Below are positions 288 through 26,700 of a stretch of 64,000 nucleotides of DNA, one piece after another. This stretch comes from a virus. Its lineage: Duplodnaviria; Caudoviricetes. The stretch covers positions 1 to 64,000 of the IMG/VR virus record IMGVR_UViG_3300021387_000682; one strand, 5' to 3'. The notes below the pieces were generated by a model. The model did not search any database and was not told the origin of the DNA. It was given only the letters and a program-made list of their open reading frames with translations. Each line of letters starts with the position of its first letter. The first letter of the stretch is position 1. Made by a program: the position numbers and the translations under genes.

Positions 288-1040
288 ATGGCAAAGAAAT
301 TGATTAGAACATATGCCAGCCTACAGGCGGCAGCAGAAAGTGCAGCAAAGAAGGGAGATGAAGCTTCATTGAACATCTTCCAGAAAGCAGCAGCAAAGAT
401 TAAGGAGCTTGCAACAATCCCACCAAAGGAGCAGCTTCTCTTACCATTTACACCAAATGCCTCAAAAGCTAAGGTGTTCAGAGAAGAGCTTGTTGACCCA
501 CTGTCTACAGAGAGAAAGGTCTTTAAAGAGGCCTCAGATAAACTCTGTGGAATTCTGGGTAACAACCCATCCTCAAACATGCGAGATGCAATTGAGGAGT
601 TCTGTATCATGACAGGCTCAGCATCACCAAGAGAGATGTTGAACATGATGTTCAGAAACGGTGAGCAGAGTAAGCTTAAGAAGCTGAGACACTATCTCGA
701 CTTCCTTGCAAACATGGCACATGGCTCAACACCAGTTATGCCAATCGCAATGATCGAGAAGAACTATATCCCATATTTCATGGGAGCAGATATCACCGAG
801 TTTGCTATGAGAATGAACGAAGAGAACACAATCTCAGCAAATTCAGGACGTCTGCGCTCATACTTCGATGAGATGAGCACAATTGAGGCTGCAAAGAAAG
901 ACATCATCAGAAACATCAATCTGGGTATATTGCCACAGGCAGATGATGATGTAATTCTGAAGCTGTCGATGGCAATCGTACCATCAGAGAGAATGAAACT
1001 GATTGAACAATACGAAAAAGAAGGCTATGTTAAGTTTTAA
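288..1040 (+). CDS. hypothetical protein (250 aa)
   Basis: Long ORF with A-rich leader (acaaactATG) and the same codon style as its neighbours; no motif recognised. Confidence 0.8.
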   Translation: MAKKLIRTYASLQAAAESAAKKGDEASLNIFQKAAAKIKELATIPPKEQLLLPFTPNASKAKVFREELVDPLSTERKVFKEASDKLCGILGNNPSSNMRDAIEEFCIMTGSASPREMLNMMFRNGEQSKLKKLRHYLDFLANMAHGSTPVMPIAMIEKNYIPYFMGADITEFAMRMNEENTISANSGRLRSYFDEMSTIEAAKKDIIRNINLGILPQADDDVILKLSMAIVPSERMKLIEQYEKEGYVKF

Positions 1041-1737
1041 CAAAATCAGAAAAATCAAGACTATCATCACAGTAGCGGCAGTGATAGCGATGGTAGTATC
1101 TATAGTTACAGACAAGGACATCACAAAAGATCTGAATGTGATGCAGTTTGTAAAGGCTGAAAAGGCGCCAAAGACCGATTGGAAGCCTATTAAGCCTATC
1201 GTCATAGACGAACCAGAGAGTGATAAAGTTTATGTTCAACCCCCTCTTAAAGAAGCGGAATGTATAGCGCAGGCAGGTACTCCACATCTGGAACCGACTA
1301 TACAAACGAAGCATAAGAGTACAATTAAGAAAAAGCAGAAGCGTGTCGCACCTCTGTCTAAGGTAGACACGATCACTGTTGCAGATGTAATATCGGATAC
1401 CATAATATCGTCCGATACGACTGAGGCCGAGTCAAGTGCAACCACAGTCATATCTGTAGATGATGTAACCGCGAATACTGCAGTTGCACACATCAGTGGA
1501 ATCCAAACTGAGCAAGGTTTTGTTTCAGATGGAGTAACTTCCACAAATGATAGCATCATAATTATAACAGCCGCAGAATTCAATAAGGCAATTAATGATG
1601 CATATCAAGCTGGAGCCAATTATGGCTACAATGAGGCAATGCAAGAAACTGGAGGTGAATTACAAACGCCAGAAGGTTTCCCGGGAGAGCGAGATATGCC
1701 CGCGATGACATTCACTACAAGTGAATCGAGCGACTGA
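1027..1737 (+). CDS. putative membrane-anchored protein with an S/T/D-rich region
   Basis: ATG at 1027 is preferred over the TTG at 1003. Basic N-terminus, hydrophobic helix IITVAAVIAMVVSIV, then low-complexity acidic S/T segment. Confidence 0.7.
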   Translation: MLSFNKIRKIKTIITVAAVIAMVVSIVTDKDITKDLNVMQFVKAEKAPKTDWKPIKPIVIDEPESDKVYVQPPLKEAECIAQAGTPHLEPTIQTKHKSTIKKKQKRVAPLSKVDTITVADVISDTIISSDTTEAESSATTVISVDDVTANTAVAHISGIQTEQGFVSDGVTSTNDSIIIITAAEFNKAINDAYQAGANYGYNEAMQETGGELQTPEGFPGERDMPAMTFTTSESSD

Positions 1738-1802
1738 GCCGCCATGACCCCGTAAGATGCAAAGATTAAACAAATTTTAGGCAAATCGAGCCAATCAGGA
1801 AC

Positions 1803-1951
1803 GCATGAAGTAAATCCCAGAAACATGCATGGAGTCCTCGTGTACCAGAAACACGATAGTTCGAGACGCGAACAGTCTCACTAGGCGTAGTCTTTGACTA
1901 CGTACGCTGAAAACCAGCTACATCAAAACGTATCCGGGGATCGTATGTCCC
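1803..1951 (+). ncRNA. candidate structured RNA (chain of six hairpins)
   Basis: GCATG/CATGC, CGTGT/ACACG, GAGAC/GTCTC, CGTAGTC-TTT-GACTACG, GCTG/CAGC and GGGA/TCCC occur back to back in an intergenic gap. Confidence 0.35.
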
Positions 1952-1978
1952 ATTATATATTAACAAAAGTATCAAACC

Positions 1979-2239
1979 ATGACAAACATTATTCTAATAT
2001 TCATCCTTTGGGTGATAGCGATGATGGTTGTCGATATGTTCGCAGCAAGCGCACAGAATGGGTCCAAACCATTAGGTGTCTCTAAACAAGAGGTAACAAG
2101 CACGATAAGCAGTTGTAAGCCTAAGTGCAGAGTTATACCGCTGACTACGAAACATCGCAACCCAGTAAGTAATAAAACTATAGCGAAGAACTTGGTTCGA
2201 CGACATCTATGCAGAGGTAGTTGTAAAGATGGTCCGTAA
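1979..2239 (+). CDS. small hypothetical protein with N-terminal TM/signal and a basic Cys-containing tail
   Basis: A-rich leader; IILIFILWVIAMMVV hydrophobic stretch. Confidence 0.55.
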   Translation: MTNIILIFILWVIAMMVVDMFAASAQNGSKPLGVSKQEVTSTISSCKPKCRVIPLTTKHRNPVSNKTIAKNLVRRHLCRGSCKDGP

Positions 2240-2579
2240 GAAAGTTCAGATCTATAGTAATAGAAACGCTTGAAAACCGTATTCTTAGATAGTGCAAATC
2301 TATCACACCCTTGAGTTCCACAAAGGCTACTCATATCCTACTGTATCATTTCCAACTGGTGGAGTGGAAAATGCCCGCAAGCACACTCGTAATACCCATT
2401 TTGGTAGGCAATAGGAGACCAGCAGAGCAAACTGCTCCAAAGAACCACAAACAACTAGGAAATAAGCAAACTCTGCCTTAAAGAGTATAGCTATCTGTCT
2501 GATATACAGATGAATGAAAAAACATGAGATTACTATCACATGGTATGGATAGCAGTCAATAATGTAGCGTGAGAACCGA

Positions 2580-2686
2580 CTGGTGACGCAATTGGTATCC
2601 GAGTTCGAATCTCGGCCCCCTTTATGGGAGTGGCGGAATTGGCATACGCGCAGCAAAACTGTACCAAAAGGTTGCAAACTAGACCA
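2580..2686 (+). ncRNA. circularly permuted tRNA-Leu-like RNA (T arm, closed acceptor, D arm, mini anticodon arm) on a bulged stem
   Basis: T arm CCGAG-TTCGAAT-CTCGG (2599-2615); acceptor hairpin CCCCC-TTTAT-GGGAG; D arm GCGGAATTGGCATACGC; CAG-CAAAA-CTG; closing stems TTGGTA/TACCAA and GCAA/TTGC. Confidence 0.6.
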
Positions 2687-2747
2687 AAGTTAGTAAGCTA
2701 TTCAAAATCAAACCACAAAGTCAACAGTAAATTGGCTCCCTTTAAGT

Positions 2748-3143
2748 TATCCAGGGGTGTAGTGGATGCCAAAGTTTAGGATATCGCCAAGGGAACACAG
2801 CCCCGCTAATAGGCAAAATTTGTCGTGTAACAGCGTGTTTAATACAATGACATACAACCATACCAGAAGCAAAGCAGATACGCTTAAATCGAGCGTAATG
2901 GGTGGGAATCCCATTGAAATAACTAATGCACATAAGTAGCATACAGCCAACCGCATAGGCAGTTGATGCGATTCTCAGTTGAATGGGATGTGGAGTAGAG
3001 CTATAATATCACACGTGGGTGCTTGACACGTAGTTGATCTCTAGAAAATATAGCTAAGCCTCAAAACGGGCACAGAAAACGTTAAGAGTAATACAGATAA
3101 CGGGTGGTTCCTGTAACTAAACAACCAAACGTCCATGAGGGAC
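2748..3143 (+). ncRNA. candidate large structured ncRNA
   Basis: No credible ORF. Many nested helices, e.g. TACGCT/AGCGTA, AATGGG/CCCATT, CGCAT/ATGCG, ACGTG/CACGT and AGCTATA/TATAGCT, plus a possible pseudoknot. Confidence 0.4.
2979..3007 (+). promoter_or_regulatory. sigma70-consensus-like promoter TTGAAT-N17-TATAAT
   Basis: Perfect -10 box, 4/6 match at -35, 17-nt spacer, about 190 nt upstream of ORF 3196. May be a chance match inside a structured RNA. Confidence 0.25.
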
Positions 3144-3195
3144 ACCAACTAAACCAAATTATTAACCAAATTCATAACATAAAAACAGAAAATAT

Positions 3196-3603
3196 ATGAG
3201 CACAAACGTAGCAAAGAGACTGGCAATATCAGACTCACTTTACACAGTAAAGACAAAGCCAGCAAAGGCATTCGAGGTTAAGATGAACCAGAACGTAATA
3301 TCAATTGCAAAAGTAAAGAAACTTTCGGCAACTACAATCAACGGACAGCCTGTGGTAACCGCATTCTGGGGTAACGCAGACGACGAGAAGCAGACATTCC
3401 CAATGGACCGCAAGTTCAATGAGTCTGTTCCAGGAGTAGATCCTGTATACACAGACCCTAAGCAGTTCAAGGAGGTTTACAAGGCCTTGGTTGAGTCTGA
3501 GCTTCAGGAGCTCGAGCAGGTAGAAATTGCGATTAAAAAGCGCAGAGCTGAAATCGAGGATCAGATGAGAAGCCTCGACGCAATCATCAATAGCGGTGAC
3601 TAA
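3196..3603 (+). CDS. hypothetical protein with C-terminal coiled coil
   Basis: A-rich leader; 135-aa ORF; heptad-like C-terminus. Confidence 0.8.
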   Translation: MSTNVAKRLAISDSLYTVKTKPAKAFEVKMNQNVISIAKVKKLSATTINGQPVVTAFWGNADDEKQTFPMDRKFNESVPGVDPVYTDPKQFKEVYKALVESELQELEQVEIAIKKRRAEIEDQMRSLDAIINSGD

Positions 3604-3605
3604 AT

Positions 3606-4268
3606 ATGAGACAGATAACAAATGAGTCAAAACAGCGACTTCATTTGCTTTGTTCACAGTATGGAGTCGCAAGCAATATACGAGAGGTAAGCGAGGACGG
3701 AAGTATCCTTACAAATGATGTTACAGAGTCAAGGTTCCTAGGCTTGGTTAAGTCGTACAAGAGAATCGACTTCTTTGACGCAGTAACAACAATTGGAAAT
3801 AGGATTCTTTCACAGTCTTCAGGGGATGACCAGGTCTCTAAGACCAAGAAATCCATAGTAGAAGGTTGTTTGAAGGGAATTGCTTCAGATGACCCTAACC
3901 GAGTAATCTGCAAACTGATGTCTGCAAGTACCCTTATAGAACTCCCTAAGGAAGAGAAGAAGGGTCCATCCGAGGAGGAAAAGAAAGCCGCCGAGGAGAA
4001 GAAAAAGCAGCAAGAAGCAGAGAAACAGAAGAAGGCCGAGGAGCAGAAAAAGCAACAGGAAGAGGCCAAGAAGAAGAAAGAAGAGGAGCAGAAGGCTAAA
4101 CAGCAACAAGCTCAACAGAATGGAAACAACAAAGAGTTGGTTCCAGTATATAGAGTCGTTCAAGAGAACGGCGAAACAATTCGCGAGGTGGAGAAAATTC
4201 CTATGAATGACTTCATGGAGCTCGTGAAAGCAAACCTTAAGGCGGGTAAAAGCATAGAATTTACATAA
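3606..4268 (+). CDS. hypothetical protein with a K/E/Q-rich helical linker
   Basis: Operonic spacing; EEEKKAAEEKKKQQEAEKQKKAEEQKKQQEE low-complexity segment. Confidence 0.8.
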   Translation: MRQITNESKQRLHLLCSQYGVASNIREVSEDGSILTNDVTESRFLGLVKSYKRIDFFDAVTTIGNRILSQSSGDDQVSKTKKSIVEGCLKGIASDDPNRVICKLMSASTLIELPKEEKKGPSEEEKKAAEEKKKQQEAEKQKKAEEQKKQQEEAKKKKEEEQKAKQQQAQQNGNNKELVPVYRVVQENGETIREVEKIPMNDFMELVKANLKAGKSIEFT

Positions 4269-5324: not shown

Positions 5325-5834
5325 ATGAAAATAGAAGTAGATACGGAGTGGTGCACTCAATACCACTTGACATTAGAACAAGCATTACTGCTTAAAGCCA
5401 AACTAAATCCATCAAACAACCTCGAAGAAGTTTTTGTGCTTAACAACAGCAAACTCCAACCTTACGAAATCGCTAGGGTTGAGGATTTGTATAATAAGCT
5501 CAAGAACGCTAAGCCAAAATTATCTGACCAATGGGCACAAGAGTTTTGGGATGAATTTCCTAAATACTGTATTGGCCCCGAAGGCAATAAGCGTTACTTG
5601 AGACAGGGAGTGTTAAAACGGAAAGCGATTTCCGAGTACAAAAAACTAATTAAAACCGAAGAGCAACACCAGATGGCAATGGAGTATTTGCGACACGACG
5701 TAGCACACAGAAAGGAAACAAACTCTCTGATGTGGATAAATTCGATCGTGAAGTATATACAAAATAAGCCCTGGGAATCCGAGGAGCTGAAAGGAGATGT
5801 TGATGGATTCATTTTTGGAGGGGATATCGAGTGA
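5325..5834 (+). CDS. putative replisome organizer / replication initiator-like protein
   Basis: EFWDEFPKY...RKAISEYKKL resembles the phage replisome-organizer C-terminal motif (FW..YP....K..A...Y). Lies directly upstream of DnaB. ATG at 5325 is preferred over 5292. Confidence 0.55.
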   Translation: MKIEVDTEWCTQYHLTLEQALLLKAKLNPSNNLEEVFVLNNSKLQPYEIARVEDLYNKLKNAKPKLSDQWAQEFWDEFPKYCIGPEGNKRYLRQGVLKRKAISEYKKLIKTEEQHQMAMEYLRHDVAHRKETNSLMWINSIVKYIQNKPWESEELKGDVDGFIFGGDIE

Positions 5835-6783
5835 TGTAAAAATCAAATCGATAAACGAAGCGGTTGATGAAGCTATAGAATCACTAAAAGAGGAAAACAA
5901 AGCCCACTACTACAAGACAGGCATCGAAAAGCTCGATCGTGCCCTTGGAGGAGGGGTTGAGCAGAATCTATTAGTGACCATTGGTGGTATATCCGGTTCC
6001 GGCAAGTCCGCAATCGCAAATATCATCGAGACCAATATAGCGGAAAACTACGAAAACGTAGTCGTTCTAAATTTTTCGTTTGAAATGACAGCCAAGTCGC
6101 AGGTGTTTAGAAAGCTTTCGTCCAAAATGCTTTGCAACACCTCGCAGTTGCGGGAACAGCTTGCACACAGTCAGAACGCACTCGGGAATGTGTCCGATGC
6201 TCGAATAGCGGTGAACCCAATAGAGGAAATCCGGAGTAGGCAAGTGTTCTACGTCGAAGAGGCGATCAATGTTAAACAGCTGTGTGACATTGTTTCTGAG
6301 TTTCAAAGAAAATGCTTTGAGGAAAAGAAATGGCTTGTAGTATTTGTGGATCACGCGCTGCTGATTGATGGAAAATCATCGGACGAAAGGACGAATGTTG
6401 CTGATCTCGAAAAAGCCTTAATAAGGCTGAAAAAGGTAGGTAGAACCACAATCTTCCAATTAATGCAGCTCAATAGAAATATAGAGTCTGCAGAAAGGAG
6501 ATCAAACAGATTGCTACACTATCCTACGAGATCTGATCTGTCAACAGCAGATGCGGTATACCAGGCATCAGACCAGGTATGGGTAATACATAGACCAGAA
6601 CTTTTAAACATAAAATCATACGGACCACATGAGATAGATTCTGAAAAGAAGGTATTTCTACATATAATTAAGTTCAGGGAAGGTGAACAAAAGATCCTCA
6701 TGTTCGAGAACCACCTGGATATTAATCGTATGGAACTTCCTAGTCAGCCTGAGAAGGCTGGCCAGGAGCAAACTTATTCATAG
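5797..6783 (+). CDS. dnaB: DnaB-family (SF4) replicative helicase
   Basis: Walker A GGISGSGKS, Walker B VFVDH, QLNR motif, SDLSTADAVYQASDQVWVIHRPE. Start codon is uncertain. Confidence 0.9.
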   Translation: MLMDSFLEGISSDVKIKSINEAVDEAIESLKEENKAHYYKTGIEKLDRALGGGVEQNLLVTIGGISGSGKSAIANIIETNIAENYENVVVLNFSFEMTAKSQVFRKLSSKMLCNTSQLREQLAHSQNALGNVSDARIAVNPIEEIRSRQVFYVEEAINVKQLCDIVSEFQRKCFEEKKWLVVFVDHALLIDGKSSDERTNVADLEKALIRLKKVGRTTIFQLMQLNRNIESAERRSNRLLHYPTRSDLSTADAVYQASDQVWVIHRPELLNIKSYGPHEIDSEKKVFLHIIKFREGEQKILMFENHLDINRMELPSQPEKAGQEQTYS

Positions 6784-13275: not shown

Positions 13276-13369
13276 GCGAGGATGCTGAAATAGGTAGACA
13301 GGATGTCAAAAGGATCCCGAACAGCCTATGGTGGTAGGATCATTGCTGGTTCGAATCCAGCTCCTCGCA
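13276..13369 (+). tRNA. tRNA-Leu-like RNA with a collapsed anticodon arm (function uncertain; possibly a pseudo-tRNA)
   Basis: Perfect acceptor GCGAGGA/TCCTCGC with A73; Leu-type D arm CTGAAATAGGTAGACAG; T arm GCTGG-TTCGAAT-CCAGC. The central 42 nt do not form a 5-bp/7-nt anticodon arm. Confidence 0.6.
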
Positions 13370-13389
13370 CAAATTAATTAAAGCACCGT

Positions 13390-23700: not shown

Positions 23701-26700
23701 GCCTAGTCTGTAGTTCTCTGTATGTGATTTTACTACCATCTGGCTTTGTGATTTCAGTCTTATCGAAGATACGACCATCATTCTTAAAGAACAGCTGAAC
23801 CTTGTTATCTAACTGAATGTAGTCAGAAACAAGCTGCTCCTTAATATTCTTATCTATGACTGAGTTCCATCTGCCTCTTAACTTATTATGAACTGAAACG
23901 AAGTCTCTGGACCCAAGTAATATCGAATACATTACAACATCACCATAGCCATTAAATCTTCTTTGTGGTCTTATTAAGTCCGCAACCCATGTGAGAATAT
24001 CACAAGCAAACCTCTTTAATCCAAATAAGCACCAAGCTACGAACTTAGATATAGGATTTTTTACTGCTAGTCTAATAGCCCTCACATTGGCTTTAGATGC
24101 TATCGACTCAAGCTTCCTACCGGTATATGCCCACAATGACTCTACGTCGTCCTTATACTTCTCTGCAAGGTTATTATATGATTCCAACGCAAAGTCTGCT
24201 AACACTTCATATGGGTCTCTATCTGGGTATTGCTTGCTTATAGCATCAATCATGGTCTTCATGCCAGCTATAGGAAGACCTGACTTCAGATAGAATATAA
24301 ACCTATCTCTACTTAAAGCAACTGGACTAGAGTCATTATTATTCCTAAGTATATCATCAGCAATCAATTTATCTGCACCCTCAAGCTGATCAAGAAGCTT
24401 CCTCTGCTCCGAATCAAGCTTTGTAACCTCTTCATCGGTAAGTGTTGCTCCTATAGAAAATTCGGTAGATACGGAACTAAGCTTAGCGTCAGATATTTCT
24501 CTACCAGAGATAGCTCCCTCAGCAAAATCCCTTATTGTAAGATTAACGAAGTCATCGAGTGTAAGCGACTTAAGCTCATCCTCTGTCCATACGCCAAGCG
24601 TTTTGCCTAACTCCTTCCAGAAGTCCAGTATCCATTGCTTGAGTTTTGATATTATATTGCTACTACCCTTCTCTGCGGCTATTGTCAAAAGCAAGGATTC
24701 TCCCTCCTTACCAACGAGTCTAGCGTGTACCTCAGATGCAATCAAATCGTCAAGCTCCTTACCGCTCTTACCTTCGGCAATCCATCTTTGACCGTATTCA
24801 GGGTGATTTAGATATTCATTCCACAGCCTCGTCTGCTTCATTAATTCAACACCACGGTTCCAGAGTGCTTCGTTCTTAGACCTTACAACCCTATCCCACA
24901 AGTGCGTATATTCGTGTATAGGATGCTCAGGTTTTATAACTCTTTCATCGAGATATATTTTACCATCTGTAGTTGCATATCCATAGACTTCACCATTTTT
25001 GGTCTTGAAGTATTCTGTATTGCCATTATCCGCAGGAGTACCAGCTGATGCTATATTTTCATTAGGAATGAATCTATTGTAATCCCATATATCTTTGAGT
25101 CTTGAATAATCCAATTTAGCCTTGAAGGTATCAAGCCAAGAGGATAACTGCAGCGGCTTCCCTGATAATGTTTTAGACATATACGACTGCCTACCAGTCT
25201 GATCCGAAAATACATCTACAGTCTTTCCTATAACTTCATTATTAGAGAACCCCTCGTGTCTGATTCCGTTGGCATCTTTTTTATTCTCATATGAATTTAC
25301 TACATTTCCATTGCCATCTACAATATCATACGATTCTATAATATTATTGCTTCCCTCAAGTATTAAATTGGCAATGCTATACCCCTCTGGAACAACCAGC
25401 CATGTATCTGTGCTATAGCTTTCTTCTTTATTCGATATCTGTCGTATATATATGGAATTAGGAAATACCTTCTCAAAGATCCTCTTATTATGTTCAGAGC
25501 TAAATGGGGAAGCCCAGTCTATATCATGTAATAGATTTTCGTTTGGTCTGAATACTGTTCCTTGCTCTGCTAATGCTACGCTTCCTGTAAGCACAAAATA
25601 GTCAGAAAGCTTTTCTACTATCTCATTACCAAACGAATCTGACTTTAGGGCTTTTTCAAGTGTAACTCGAGTAAGAGGCTTTCCTATGGATCCAGGTTTA
25701 TACATTGACTGCGTAACTAACGCTTCGTTTTGAAGCATAATGTTATCTACAATGTATCCAACATTCCTGTTTATACGATTAAGTTTAATCTTATAAAGAA
25801 AATCAAAGAATTGACGTATGAGGTTTCTTAGCTTCTCAACAAGAGTTTGCGGTATGTTTTCATTTGTTCTCTTATGTAATTCATTGGCTATCAAATCTCC
25901 AACAGCTTGTAACTGCTCTTCCTTTGACAACAGTCCCTTAAATAAGGAGTTTTTCCTCATGTCACTCATTATTTCAGTCACAAGAGGATTGTGTTGCATC
26001 ATAAAAGCAATAACAGTACCAGCCTCTTCAGGGAAGTTCTCTTGTTTGTTTTGATTTATGTATGCAATTTTATTTAAGATCTGTATTGTTGAGTATCCAT
26101 CTATTCCTAACTTCTCAAGATCATTTGTTATTTGAGTGCTAAAACCAAACTTTGACAAATACTTTACAAGTATCTTATTTACTTCCGTGTTTAACTTATC
26201 GTATATCTCTGGGTTATTTATTCTGTCCTCTGAGTCTATTTTAACCTTATTGCTTTTTGAGTTTGATATAATTTGATCAATAACCTCATGCATCTCCTTA
26301 TCTGTGAGGGTACCAGACTTAAATTTCTTTACATAGTTATAAGCATTTTTATCATATATGCCTAGCTCCTTAAGGGTATTGAACAATCCGGTATAATCTT
26401 TAGAAAGGTATTGTGCCTTAAGTTTCTGTAATGTCTTATATTGGTTATAGAATCTATCATAAGCTTCAACCTCATCTGCTGTTATTTTGCTTACCTTCTT
26501 TCCGAATACTCGCTCTGCAAGTTTTTCATTTGAAAAGTAAAGGTGTTTCACCATCTCTTCTCCCCTGAAATTATATGGTTTATCTACTTGTAACTCATAT
26601 AATCCCTTCTTCCTAAGCATCCCTCCGATATCTTCAGGAACAGAAGCCATAAATGGTACACTATCGAGTAATACATCAAGAGATTCGTACAGCTTTCTTA

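Follow-up and report, generated by a model that had tools for sequence, protein, structure and literature searches.

The window analysed here is a stretch of 64,000 nt, the first 64 kb of an IMG/VR record of 87.6 kb rated 94% complete. Its + strand carries an RNA element of about 100 nt (2580-2682) which, as far as its sequence can tell, is a real mimic derived from tRNA-Leu, non-chargeable and non-decoding. The element is built of a T arm, a sealed acceptor, U8-G9, a Leu-type D arm, a hairpin of 3 bp with a 5-nt loop and a bulged closing stem, and it reads as a class II tRNA-Leu body, circularly permuted, with its variable stem prolonged by two more helices. The explanation that we prefer, to which we assign a probability of about 0.45, is that it would be a small, structured and functional RNA (or one domain within the 2240-3195 stretch around it) that mimics a tRNA body and works in trans by binding a protein; we infer this function, and likewise the expression of the element and its folding in vivo. 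Its parts are the following:

2580-2584, + strand: 5' strand of P1 (CTGGT), pairing with 2678-2682, with one G.U pair; present in the minimum free energy (MFE) fold
Between the 5' strands of P1 and P2, + strand: unpaired gac, read from the sequence
2588-2591, + strand: 5' strand of P2 (GCAA), pairing with TTGC 2672-2675 across the AAGG bulge
2592-2597, + strand: 5' strand of P3 (TTGGTA), the counterpart of the variable-arm 3' strand in class II tRNAs
2598, + strand: single U, equivalent of position 48, between P3 and the T stem
2599-2615, + strand: T arm, made of CCGAG 2599-2603, loop TTCGAAT 2604-2610 and CTCGG 2611-2615; seen in the MFE fold and in the YrlA alignment
2616-2630, + strand: sealed acceptor, made of CCCCC 2616-2620, loop TTTAT 2621-2625 and GGGAG 2626-2630, with the mismatch C2617.A2629
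2631-2632, + strand: U8-G9 (TG), read from the sequence
2633-2649, + strand: Leu-type D arm GCGGAATTGGCATACGC, identical at 15/17 positions to the D arm of cr131_1 tRNA-Leu(UAA)
2650-2661, + strand: hairpin best read as a collapsed anticodon arm, G2650 (G26) followed by CAG-CAAAA-CTG 2651-2661; from the alignment to cr131_1 tRNA-Leu(UAA)
2662-2667, + strand: 3' strand of P3 (TACCAA), corresponding to the 5' strand of the variable arm
2668-2682, + strand: AAGG bulge, 3' strand of P2 (TTGC 2672-2675), AA, and 3' strand of P1 (ACTAG 2678-2682)

All the helices named in a preliminary description of this DNA were found on the + strand, the C2617.A2629 mismatch being their sole flaw, and the pairing that it had proposed between the flanks (TTGGTA/TACCAA, GCAA/TTGC and CTGGT/ACTAG) is borne out by the sequence and by the MFE fold. 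When no constraint is imposed, the MFE fold gives the layout drawn at that time, a four-way junction placed on a bulged stem. The closing stem, from P1 to P3, is a bulged helix of 15 bp, and the acceptor is without free 3' end, discriminator or CCA. The elbow nucleotides, read from the sequence, are all there: U8, A14, A15 with U48, G18G19 and the equivalents of T54-Psi55-C56...A58.

Within the core, the string TGGCGGAATTGG, which is the standard run from U8 to the D loop in bacterial and phage tRNA-Leu, is matched exactly over 12 nt. The small hairpin GCAG-C--AAAA-CTG aligns on GCAGACTTAAAATCTGC of the cr131_1 tRNA-Leu(UAA); relative to the anticodon arm of that tRNA (GCAGA-CTTAAAA-TCTGC) four bases are missing, two of them from the 7-nt loop, and the hairpin is best read as a collapsed anticodon arm whose 5-nt loop would be unable to decode. 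The spacing of a single U between variable stem and T stem is common to the element and to the cr131_1 tRNA-Leu. Because the succession of TTGGTA, one U and the T stem is spaced as in a tRNA, and TACCAA lies directly 3' of the anticodon arm, the chain is opened in the loop of the variable arm. The alignment with cr131_1 upholds the earlier proposal of a permuted class II tRNA-Leu with a sealed acceptor and a shrunken anticodon hairpin, and, with a closed acceptor and an anticodon loop of only 5 nt, the element can be neither charged nor decode.

Other identities were considered and rejected. A functional tRNA-Leu is ruled out by the permuted order, the sealed acceptor, the 5-nt loop and the lack of an ARAGORN or Rfam call, and a permuted gene maturing to a working tRNA by the 5-bp mismatched acceptor and the anticodon arm of 3 bp and 5 nt. 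A permuted two-piece tmRNA is ruled out by the negative ARAGORN result in the window. T-box ligand, synthetase substrate and attP were all discarded on anatomy (sealed acceptor; 5' half directly after the 3' half). Two of the functions first suggested for the element fared poorly: the sealed end excludes a synthetase substrate and a T-box ligand found no support, and the element, lacking an anticodon loop of 7 nt, makes an unlikely decoy for anticodon nucleases.

We also evaluated how far the structure could be a product of chance. The tRNA signature is not one, since a canonical 7-nt T loop stands on a perfect 5-bp stem and is accompanied by the 12-nt exact match to TGGCGGAATTGG. The MFE fold energy of the element is ordinary (z = 0.24), which is usual for tRNA-sized RNAs, and the reverse strand folds about equally well; the T-loop and D-loop signatures are found only on the + strand. 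A duplex as stable as the closing one (-15.4 kcal/mol) arises in 1.8% of dinucleotide shuffles and in 1.5% of equally spaced pairs of genomic flanks, while for the acceptor we estimate that 4/5 standard pairs would be reached by chance about 7% of the time. ARAGORN called no tRNA or tmRNA at 2580-2686 and no tmRNA across the window, and Rfam at gathering thresholds returned nothing at the element, tRNA (RF00005) not being called; on either side of the element neither ARAGORN nor Rfam found tRNA remnants.

The genome that carries the element is, from its sequence, that of a crAss-like phage (gut-type) of a distant lineage; this label holds because the helicase (5797-6783) has about 40% amino-acid identity to Suoliviridae phages and because the minus-strand arm contains giant ORFs of 5843, 3164 and 2125 aa. 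The element is on the + strand, as is every gene in the first 17 kb, and lies inside a stretch of about 950 nt (2240-3195) without credible ORFs (table 11, TAG=Q, TGA=W), bounded on both sides by + strand coding sequences:

1979-2239, + strand: small ORF of 86 aa whose N-terminus, MTNIILIFILWVIAMMVVDMF..., is strongly hydrophobic; the product is probably a small protein, membrane-bound or secreted
3196-3603, + strand: gene for a conserved 135-aa protein, the first gene past the non-coding stretch

Homologues of the 135-aa protein were found in more than 200 Logan/ENA/IMG metagenomic contigs of up to 93 kb, a set of them at 53-93% identity. Its model is a small five-stranded beta-barrel with a 45-residue helix (pLDDT 69), for which no significant structural match was obtained (Foldseek E >= 0.26; VIA Z <= 3.7). 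For a neighbouring protein of 244 aa the model was unusable (pLDDT 38) and the protein atlas search was empty, and for the neighbouring proteins Pfam and PHROG gave no assignment. The minus-strand ORF 2327-2677 was treated as spurious because its translation is low-complexity and Cys-rich, and alternative genetic codes opened no long ORF across the element. Scans for promoters and terminators gave no convincing promoter or terminator of its own for the element and were uninformative. In the 2240-3195 gap there is no Rfam family at E <= 1 and no repeated regulatory motif connecting it with other intergenic regions, and its fold energy as a whole is ordinary, no better than that of shuffles.

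Relatives were searched for in IMG/VR by protein-anchored searches (ORF 3196-3603 and the helicase), in JGI metagenomes, among GenBank phages at the DNA and protein level, and by exact-pattern scans. In the one relative obtained by these searches, IMGVR_UViG_3300021400_001137, which is about 98% identical overall and differs at 142/8215 aligned positions, the element is identical, there are zero SNPs in 2554-3091 and only 4 SNPs fall in 2240-3195. Low SNP density spans 1000-3600 and is not specific to the element, so that, the entire block being SNP-poor, the identity of the element counts as weak evidence. R1, a covariance model built on the element, detected no further copy within the window and no match in 10 Suoliviridae/crAss-like GenBank genomes, from which the element would be young or lineage-restricted; the same model does recognise unrelated sealed-acceptor modules. 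One nearby stretch was considered as a paralogue:

2352-2442, + strand: stretch of 91 nt running from CCAACTGGTG to GCAAACTGCTCCAAAG; the element bears these motifs at its two ends (CCGACTGGTG ... GCAAACTAGACCAAAG)

This stretch shares CCRACTGGTG and GCAAACTNNNCCAAAG with the element and holds a CAG..CAAA..CTG hairpin. As a paralogue it was rejected, the similarity not being significant (3.3% of shuffles are equal, many genomic windows score higher and R1 is blind to it), and it may represent a sister unit that has diverged, or mere coincidence.

The surroundings of the element bear on the possibility of a cis-acting role, either as a tRNA-like signal in a long leader or polycistronic transcript, read by RNase P, RNase Z, RNase E or tRNA-modifying enzymes and controlling processing or stability, or as a domain of an ncRNA of about 2240-3195. 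Such a signal would fit an SNP-poor ORF-free gap of 950 nt between + strand genes, the lack of a convincing promoter or terminator of its own, and the stretch 2352-2442, which begins and ends with short motifs of the element, although the likeness of that stretch to the element is not significant. The YrlA RNA of M. smegmatis, a tRNA-like RNA, is cut by RNase P, but Chen et al. 2014 (PMC4201824) observed the cleavage only where the acceptor had 7 bp, whereas acceptor and T stack of the element reach only 10 bp and are sealed. For the gap, moreover, Rfam gave no family at E <= 1, and shuffled sequences fold just as well. On balance we hold the cis-acting role to be distinctly unlikely.

YrlA (RF02553) is a tRNA-like Y RNA bound by bacterial and mycobacteriophage Ro60/Rsr (PMC4201824) and modified by TruB/DusA, and the preliminary description had likened the element to it. 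Four features define YrlA (PMC4201824): its core is T-AS-D, the motif GNCGAAN0-1G stands close to the 5' end, a V stem-loop precedes the T arm, and the gene is at most 4 kb from Ro60, with both on one strand. In a cmscan search of 701 nt YrlA was the best Rfam match to the element, with 15.9 bits against a gathering score of 69 (E = 2.4), in an alignment that spans model positions 1-114 and has T, acceptor and D in register; in a search of 1601 nt it was not reported at E <= 1. No GNCGAA is found on the + strand in the window 1207-4170, and the closing helix is one nucleotide from the T stem with the extra hairpin 3' of the D arm, so that the YrlA layout is not reproduced; in L180, a Ro60-adjacent module read base by base, the V hairpin is 5' of the T arm and the closing helix occupies the position of the anticodon stem. 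Among the four defining features the element therefore has the T-AS-D core only. TROVE/Ro60 had no match at E <= 1 in the 87.6-kb genome, control genomes being positive, and this search of a 94%-complete genome confirms the earlier remark that no Ro60 gene was visible. Of the comparison with YrlA, the order T-acceptor-D stands, while membership of the family does not, given the Rfam score, the Ro60 neighbourhood, the GNCGAA motif and the point of permutation.

To place the element among similar designs, the pattern GTTCRAATC, 12-26 nt, TGGCGGAATTGG was scanned in viral, metagenomic and genomic collections. Most matches are ordinary tandem tRNA-X/tRNA-Leu pairs, and in about 25 independent families the intervening bases fold as a sealed hairpin. 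The neighbours of these modules were obtained by all-against-all ORF comparison followed by Pfam. Ro60 (TROVE + vWA_Ro60) is found within about 4 kb on the same strand in six families (L180, L191, L249, L264, L274, L292), and DUF7873 is directly adjacent on the same strand in three phage families (L037, L068/L106 and, in Pseudanabaena phage Pam2, L295). SPFH/Band 7 and AAA ATPase genes recur as same-strand neighbours in Bacteroidota, and in one family (L099) an GCAGCAAT motif lies 5' of the core and the genome encodes DUF2828. With these neighbours, the pattern retrieves Ro60-adjacent YrlA-like RNAs plus other protein-linked tRNA mimics. Since the modules recur in many unrelated phages and bacteria, often by Ro60 or DUF7873, the sealed T-acceptor-D design shows itself, on sequence and gene neighbourhood, as a recurrent, protein-associated module.

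In the genome of the window phage DUF7873 (PF25283) had no match at E <= 10, and comparison of the DUF7873 alignment with the three flanking ORFs by hhalign gave probabilities of <=0.4%. DUF2828 is absent from the same genome, with one marginal low-complexity match of 14 bits. All 20 ACAGCAA sites are outside the ORF-free gap; the element has GCAGCAA 3' of its D arm. A DUF7873- or DUF2828-associated RNA is ruled out by the lack of either gene.

Some of the modules retrieved deserve a record of their own. In the cultured cyanophage Pam2 (ON014754) an unannotated sealed-acceptor tRNA-Leu-like module (L295, 1476-1583) is located 112 nt downstream of the DUF7873 gene Pam2_134, and ARAGORN finds no tRNA in the 3-kb stretch. 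On the chromosome of Aquimarina sp. SS2-1 (L290, 6270-6440) two tRNA-like bodies lie within a single outer acceptor stem, GGTCCCG/CGAGACC, and are linked through a T arm, TATCCT-CTT-GGGATA and a D arm of Leu type; related copies in Bacteroidota (L249, L279, L284) adjoin an SPFH/Band 7 gene, and L249 also has Ro60 within 4 kb. In the phage contigs L054/L125 (IMG/VR) a sealed acceptor of 5 bp, TAGGC-TTCA-GCCTA, separates the T arm from a D arm of Leu type, after which come an anticodon-like arm and a second T arm that covaries between both contigs. A genome of this last family (G001, 65 kb, 94% complete) is without TROVE, DUF2828 and DUF7873, like the window phage.

These data allow us to consider whether the element might be a true YrlA-type Y RNA that uses the Ro60 (Rsr) of the host, a special case of the explanation that we prefer. 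YrlA is its top Rfam match, over an end-to-end alignment in which T, acceptor and D stay in register. In the six families that share its T/D signature a Ro60 gene lies at most about 4 kb away on the same strand, and Bacteroides thetaiotaomicron, included as a control, has a TROVE protein. However the score is 15.9 bits against 69 with E = 2.4, the phage has no TROVE, and the element is opened at the variable arm with its hairpin 3' of the D arm, unlike YrlA and L180. It also has no GNCGAAN0-1G motif, an absence that counts weakly because the motif is found upstream of just 2/6 Ro60-adjacent control modules and 4/6 are without it. TROVE was detected in only 2/81 sampled Bacteroidaceae genomes, so that reliance on a Ro60 of the host is conceivable but not the favoured option. 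We consider a true YrlA with a host partner quite improbable.

In the protein-binding explanation that we prefer, the element would be transcribed with the + strand early/replication gene block. It derives from a Crassvirales tRNA-Leu(UAA), most simply by a tandem duplication followed by loss of the outer halves, a route that would give a circular permutation opened in the variable-arm loop, with the elbow (T loop, G18G19, U8, A14, A15/U48) and the coaxial acceptor/T stack kept. The tRNA-body mimic would be shown on the bulged stem as on a handle and work in trans, binding, and so scaffolding or sequestering, a protein able to recognise the elbow of tRNAs or the body of class II tRNAs; by analogy, this binding may resemble that of YrlA in Ro60 complexes, and the partner would be encoded elsewhere than beside the element. 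The intact core, the flanks free of tRNA remnants and a closing duplex that exceeds about 98% of controls and abuts the junction exactly argue for this explanation. So do the alignment to a crAss tRNA-Leu(UAA), deletions of the anticodon arm included, the position of the element in an ORF-free stretch on the strand of its flanking genes, the absence of SNPs in 2554-3091, and the recurrence elsewhere of sealed modules with this D arm, often by Ro60 or DUF7873. Against it are the ordinary fold energy, the empty R1 search in 10 Suoliviridae, the lack of a TROVE, DUF2828 or DUF7873 gene, and neighbour proteins that show no kinship with DUF7873 and no informative fold.

The same duplication could have left nothing more than an evolutionary relic with no present function, namely what remains at the junction of two tRNA-Leu genes in tandem after decay of their outer halves. 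Tandem duplication is the natural route to such a permutation and, since an ancestral tRNA-Leu duplicated in this way would hand down both the acceptor and the TTGGTA/TACCAA pairing, these would simply be inherited. Tandem tRNA-X/tRNA-Leu pairs dominate the pattern matches, and Chen et al. 2014 (PMC4201824) warned that dimeric tRNAs can mimic YrlA. A relic would also agree with an element limited to one clade, with the downstream TACCAA-AAGG-TTGCAA, which could be a decayed variable-arm hairpin, and with a second broken-looking Leu-like tRNA in the same genome:

13276-13370, + strand: Leu-like tRNA look-alike, called tRNA-Phe(aaa), 95 nt, by ARAGORN

Decay, however, would have been very uneven, with T arm, T loop, D arm and sealed acceptor essentially perfect and nothing tRNA-like outside; the closing pairing goes 9 bp past a normal variable stem, which is rare by chance, and there are no SNPs relative to a phage differing at 1.7% of aligned positions. 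Because the acceptor has a 5-nt spacer, no discriminator and no full 7-nt strands, it appears to have been remodelled rather than left to decay. A relic is thus, in our opinion, somewhat unlikely.

The RNA at 13276-13370 has acceptor, T arm and A73 intact, and its anticodon region is collapsed and also contains CAAAA; as T and D arms differ, it and the element are not recent copies of each other. The existence of two anticodon-less Leu-type bodies in one genome (2580-2682 and 13276-13370) would be consistent with a decoy or regulator of an enzyme attacking tRNA ends or class II bodies, be it an anti-phage tRNA nuclease or nucleotidyltransferase of the host or a candidate MenT/AbiEii-like protein of the phage. 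MenT3 picks class II tRNAs via the variable arm (PMC11541572), and the element has a long variable-arm-like stem followed by a single nucleotide. Pfam, however, did not confirm the MenT-like nucleotidyltransferase domain at 24890-25852, the element offers no anticodon loop to anticodon nucleases and no free CCA to end-modifying enzymes, and the decoy role is entirely inferential; we regard it as very improbable. The same low odds go to the idea that the phage pairs the sealed permuted body with the open-ended one of 13276-13370 as a counter-measure or regulator made of RNA alone, directed at an enzyme choosing class II tRNAs by body and variable arm; if it were true, the sealed mimic would be an uncleavable and unextendable competitive inhibitor.

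That tRNA-mimicking Y RNAs, phage ones included, are partners of Ro60 is already known. What is new is the combination of a crAss-like genome, a Leu class II body opened at the variable arm, a hairpin read as a collapsed anticodon arm and no partner gene: the sealed tRNA-Leu design occurs in a crAss-like phage without Ro60, DUF2828 or DUF7873 and opened at a different point of the cloverleaf. If the element is functional as a protein-binding mimic, tRNA-body mimicry would be a phage tool more general than the Ro60 system alone, and the element would be a compact RNA for finding a host or phage protein that reads the tRNA elbow in crAss-like infection of gut Bacteroidales. If only a relic, it would be a record of a permuted tRNA mimic arising by tandem tRNA duplication.

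The known systems that resemble the element can now be compared with it. Permuted tRNA genes occur in Cyanidioschyzon merolae and in some archaea, and permuted two-piece tmRNA genes are also known; their products are matured to working RNAs with free acceptor ends. They are like the element in having the 3' half (T arm and 3' acceptor strand) upstream of the 5' half, whereas the acceptor of the element has 5 bp with a 5-nt loop and there is no usable anticodon loop and no tag frame. With the tRNA-Leu(UAA) of Crassvirales, such as KNV60_gt03 of cr131_1, the element has in common the D arm (15/17), G26 and the GCAG...AAAA...CTG succession, while it differs in being permuted, in its sealed 5-bp acceptor, in an anticodon loop reduced from 7 to 5 nt and in a variable stem lengthened to a 15-bp bulged helix.

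The modules linked with DUF7873 or DUF2828 have the same T loop, D arm signature and sealed acceptor, and are likewise carried by phages; unlike the element, they possess 7-bp acceptors with 8-nt loops or full anticodon arms. In the module linked with DUF2828 GCAGCAAT/ACAGCAAT is found 5' of the core, whereas the element has CAGCAA only 3', inside the small hairpin. As for YrlA, the D arm of the element is of the Leu (class II) type and no Ro60 gene is present nearby or genome-wide; the element is opened in the variable arm and YrlA in the anticodon arm, and the hairpin of the element (the collapsed anticodon arm) is 3' of the D arm, whereas the V hairpin of YrlA is 5' of the T arm. The two RNAs nevertheless have the same order of T arm, acceptor-position stem-loop and D arm and keep the nucleotides of the tertiary contacts; both heads sit on a helix made by the 5' and 3' parts of the RNA, neither would decode, and YrlA, too, is known from phages.
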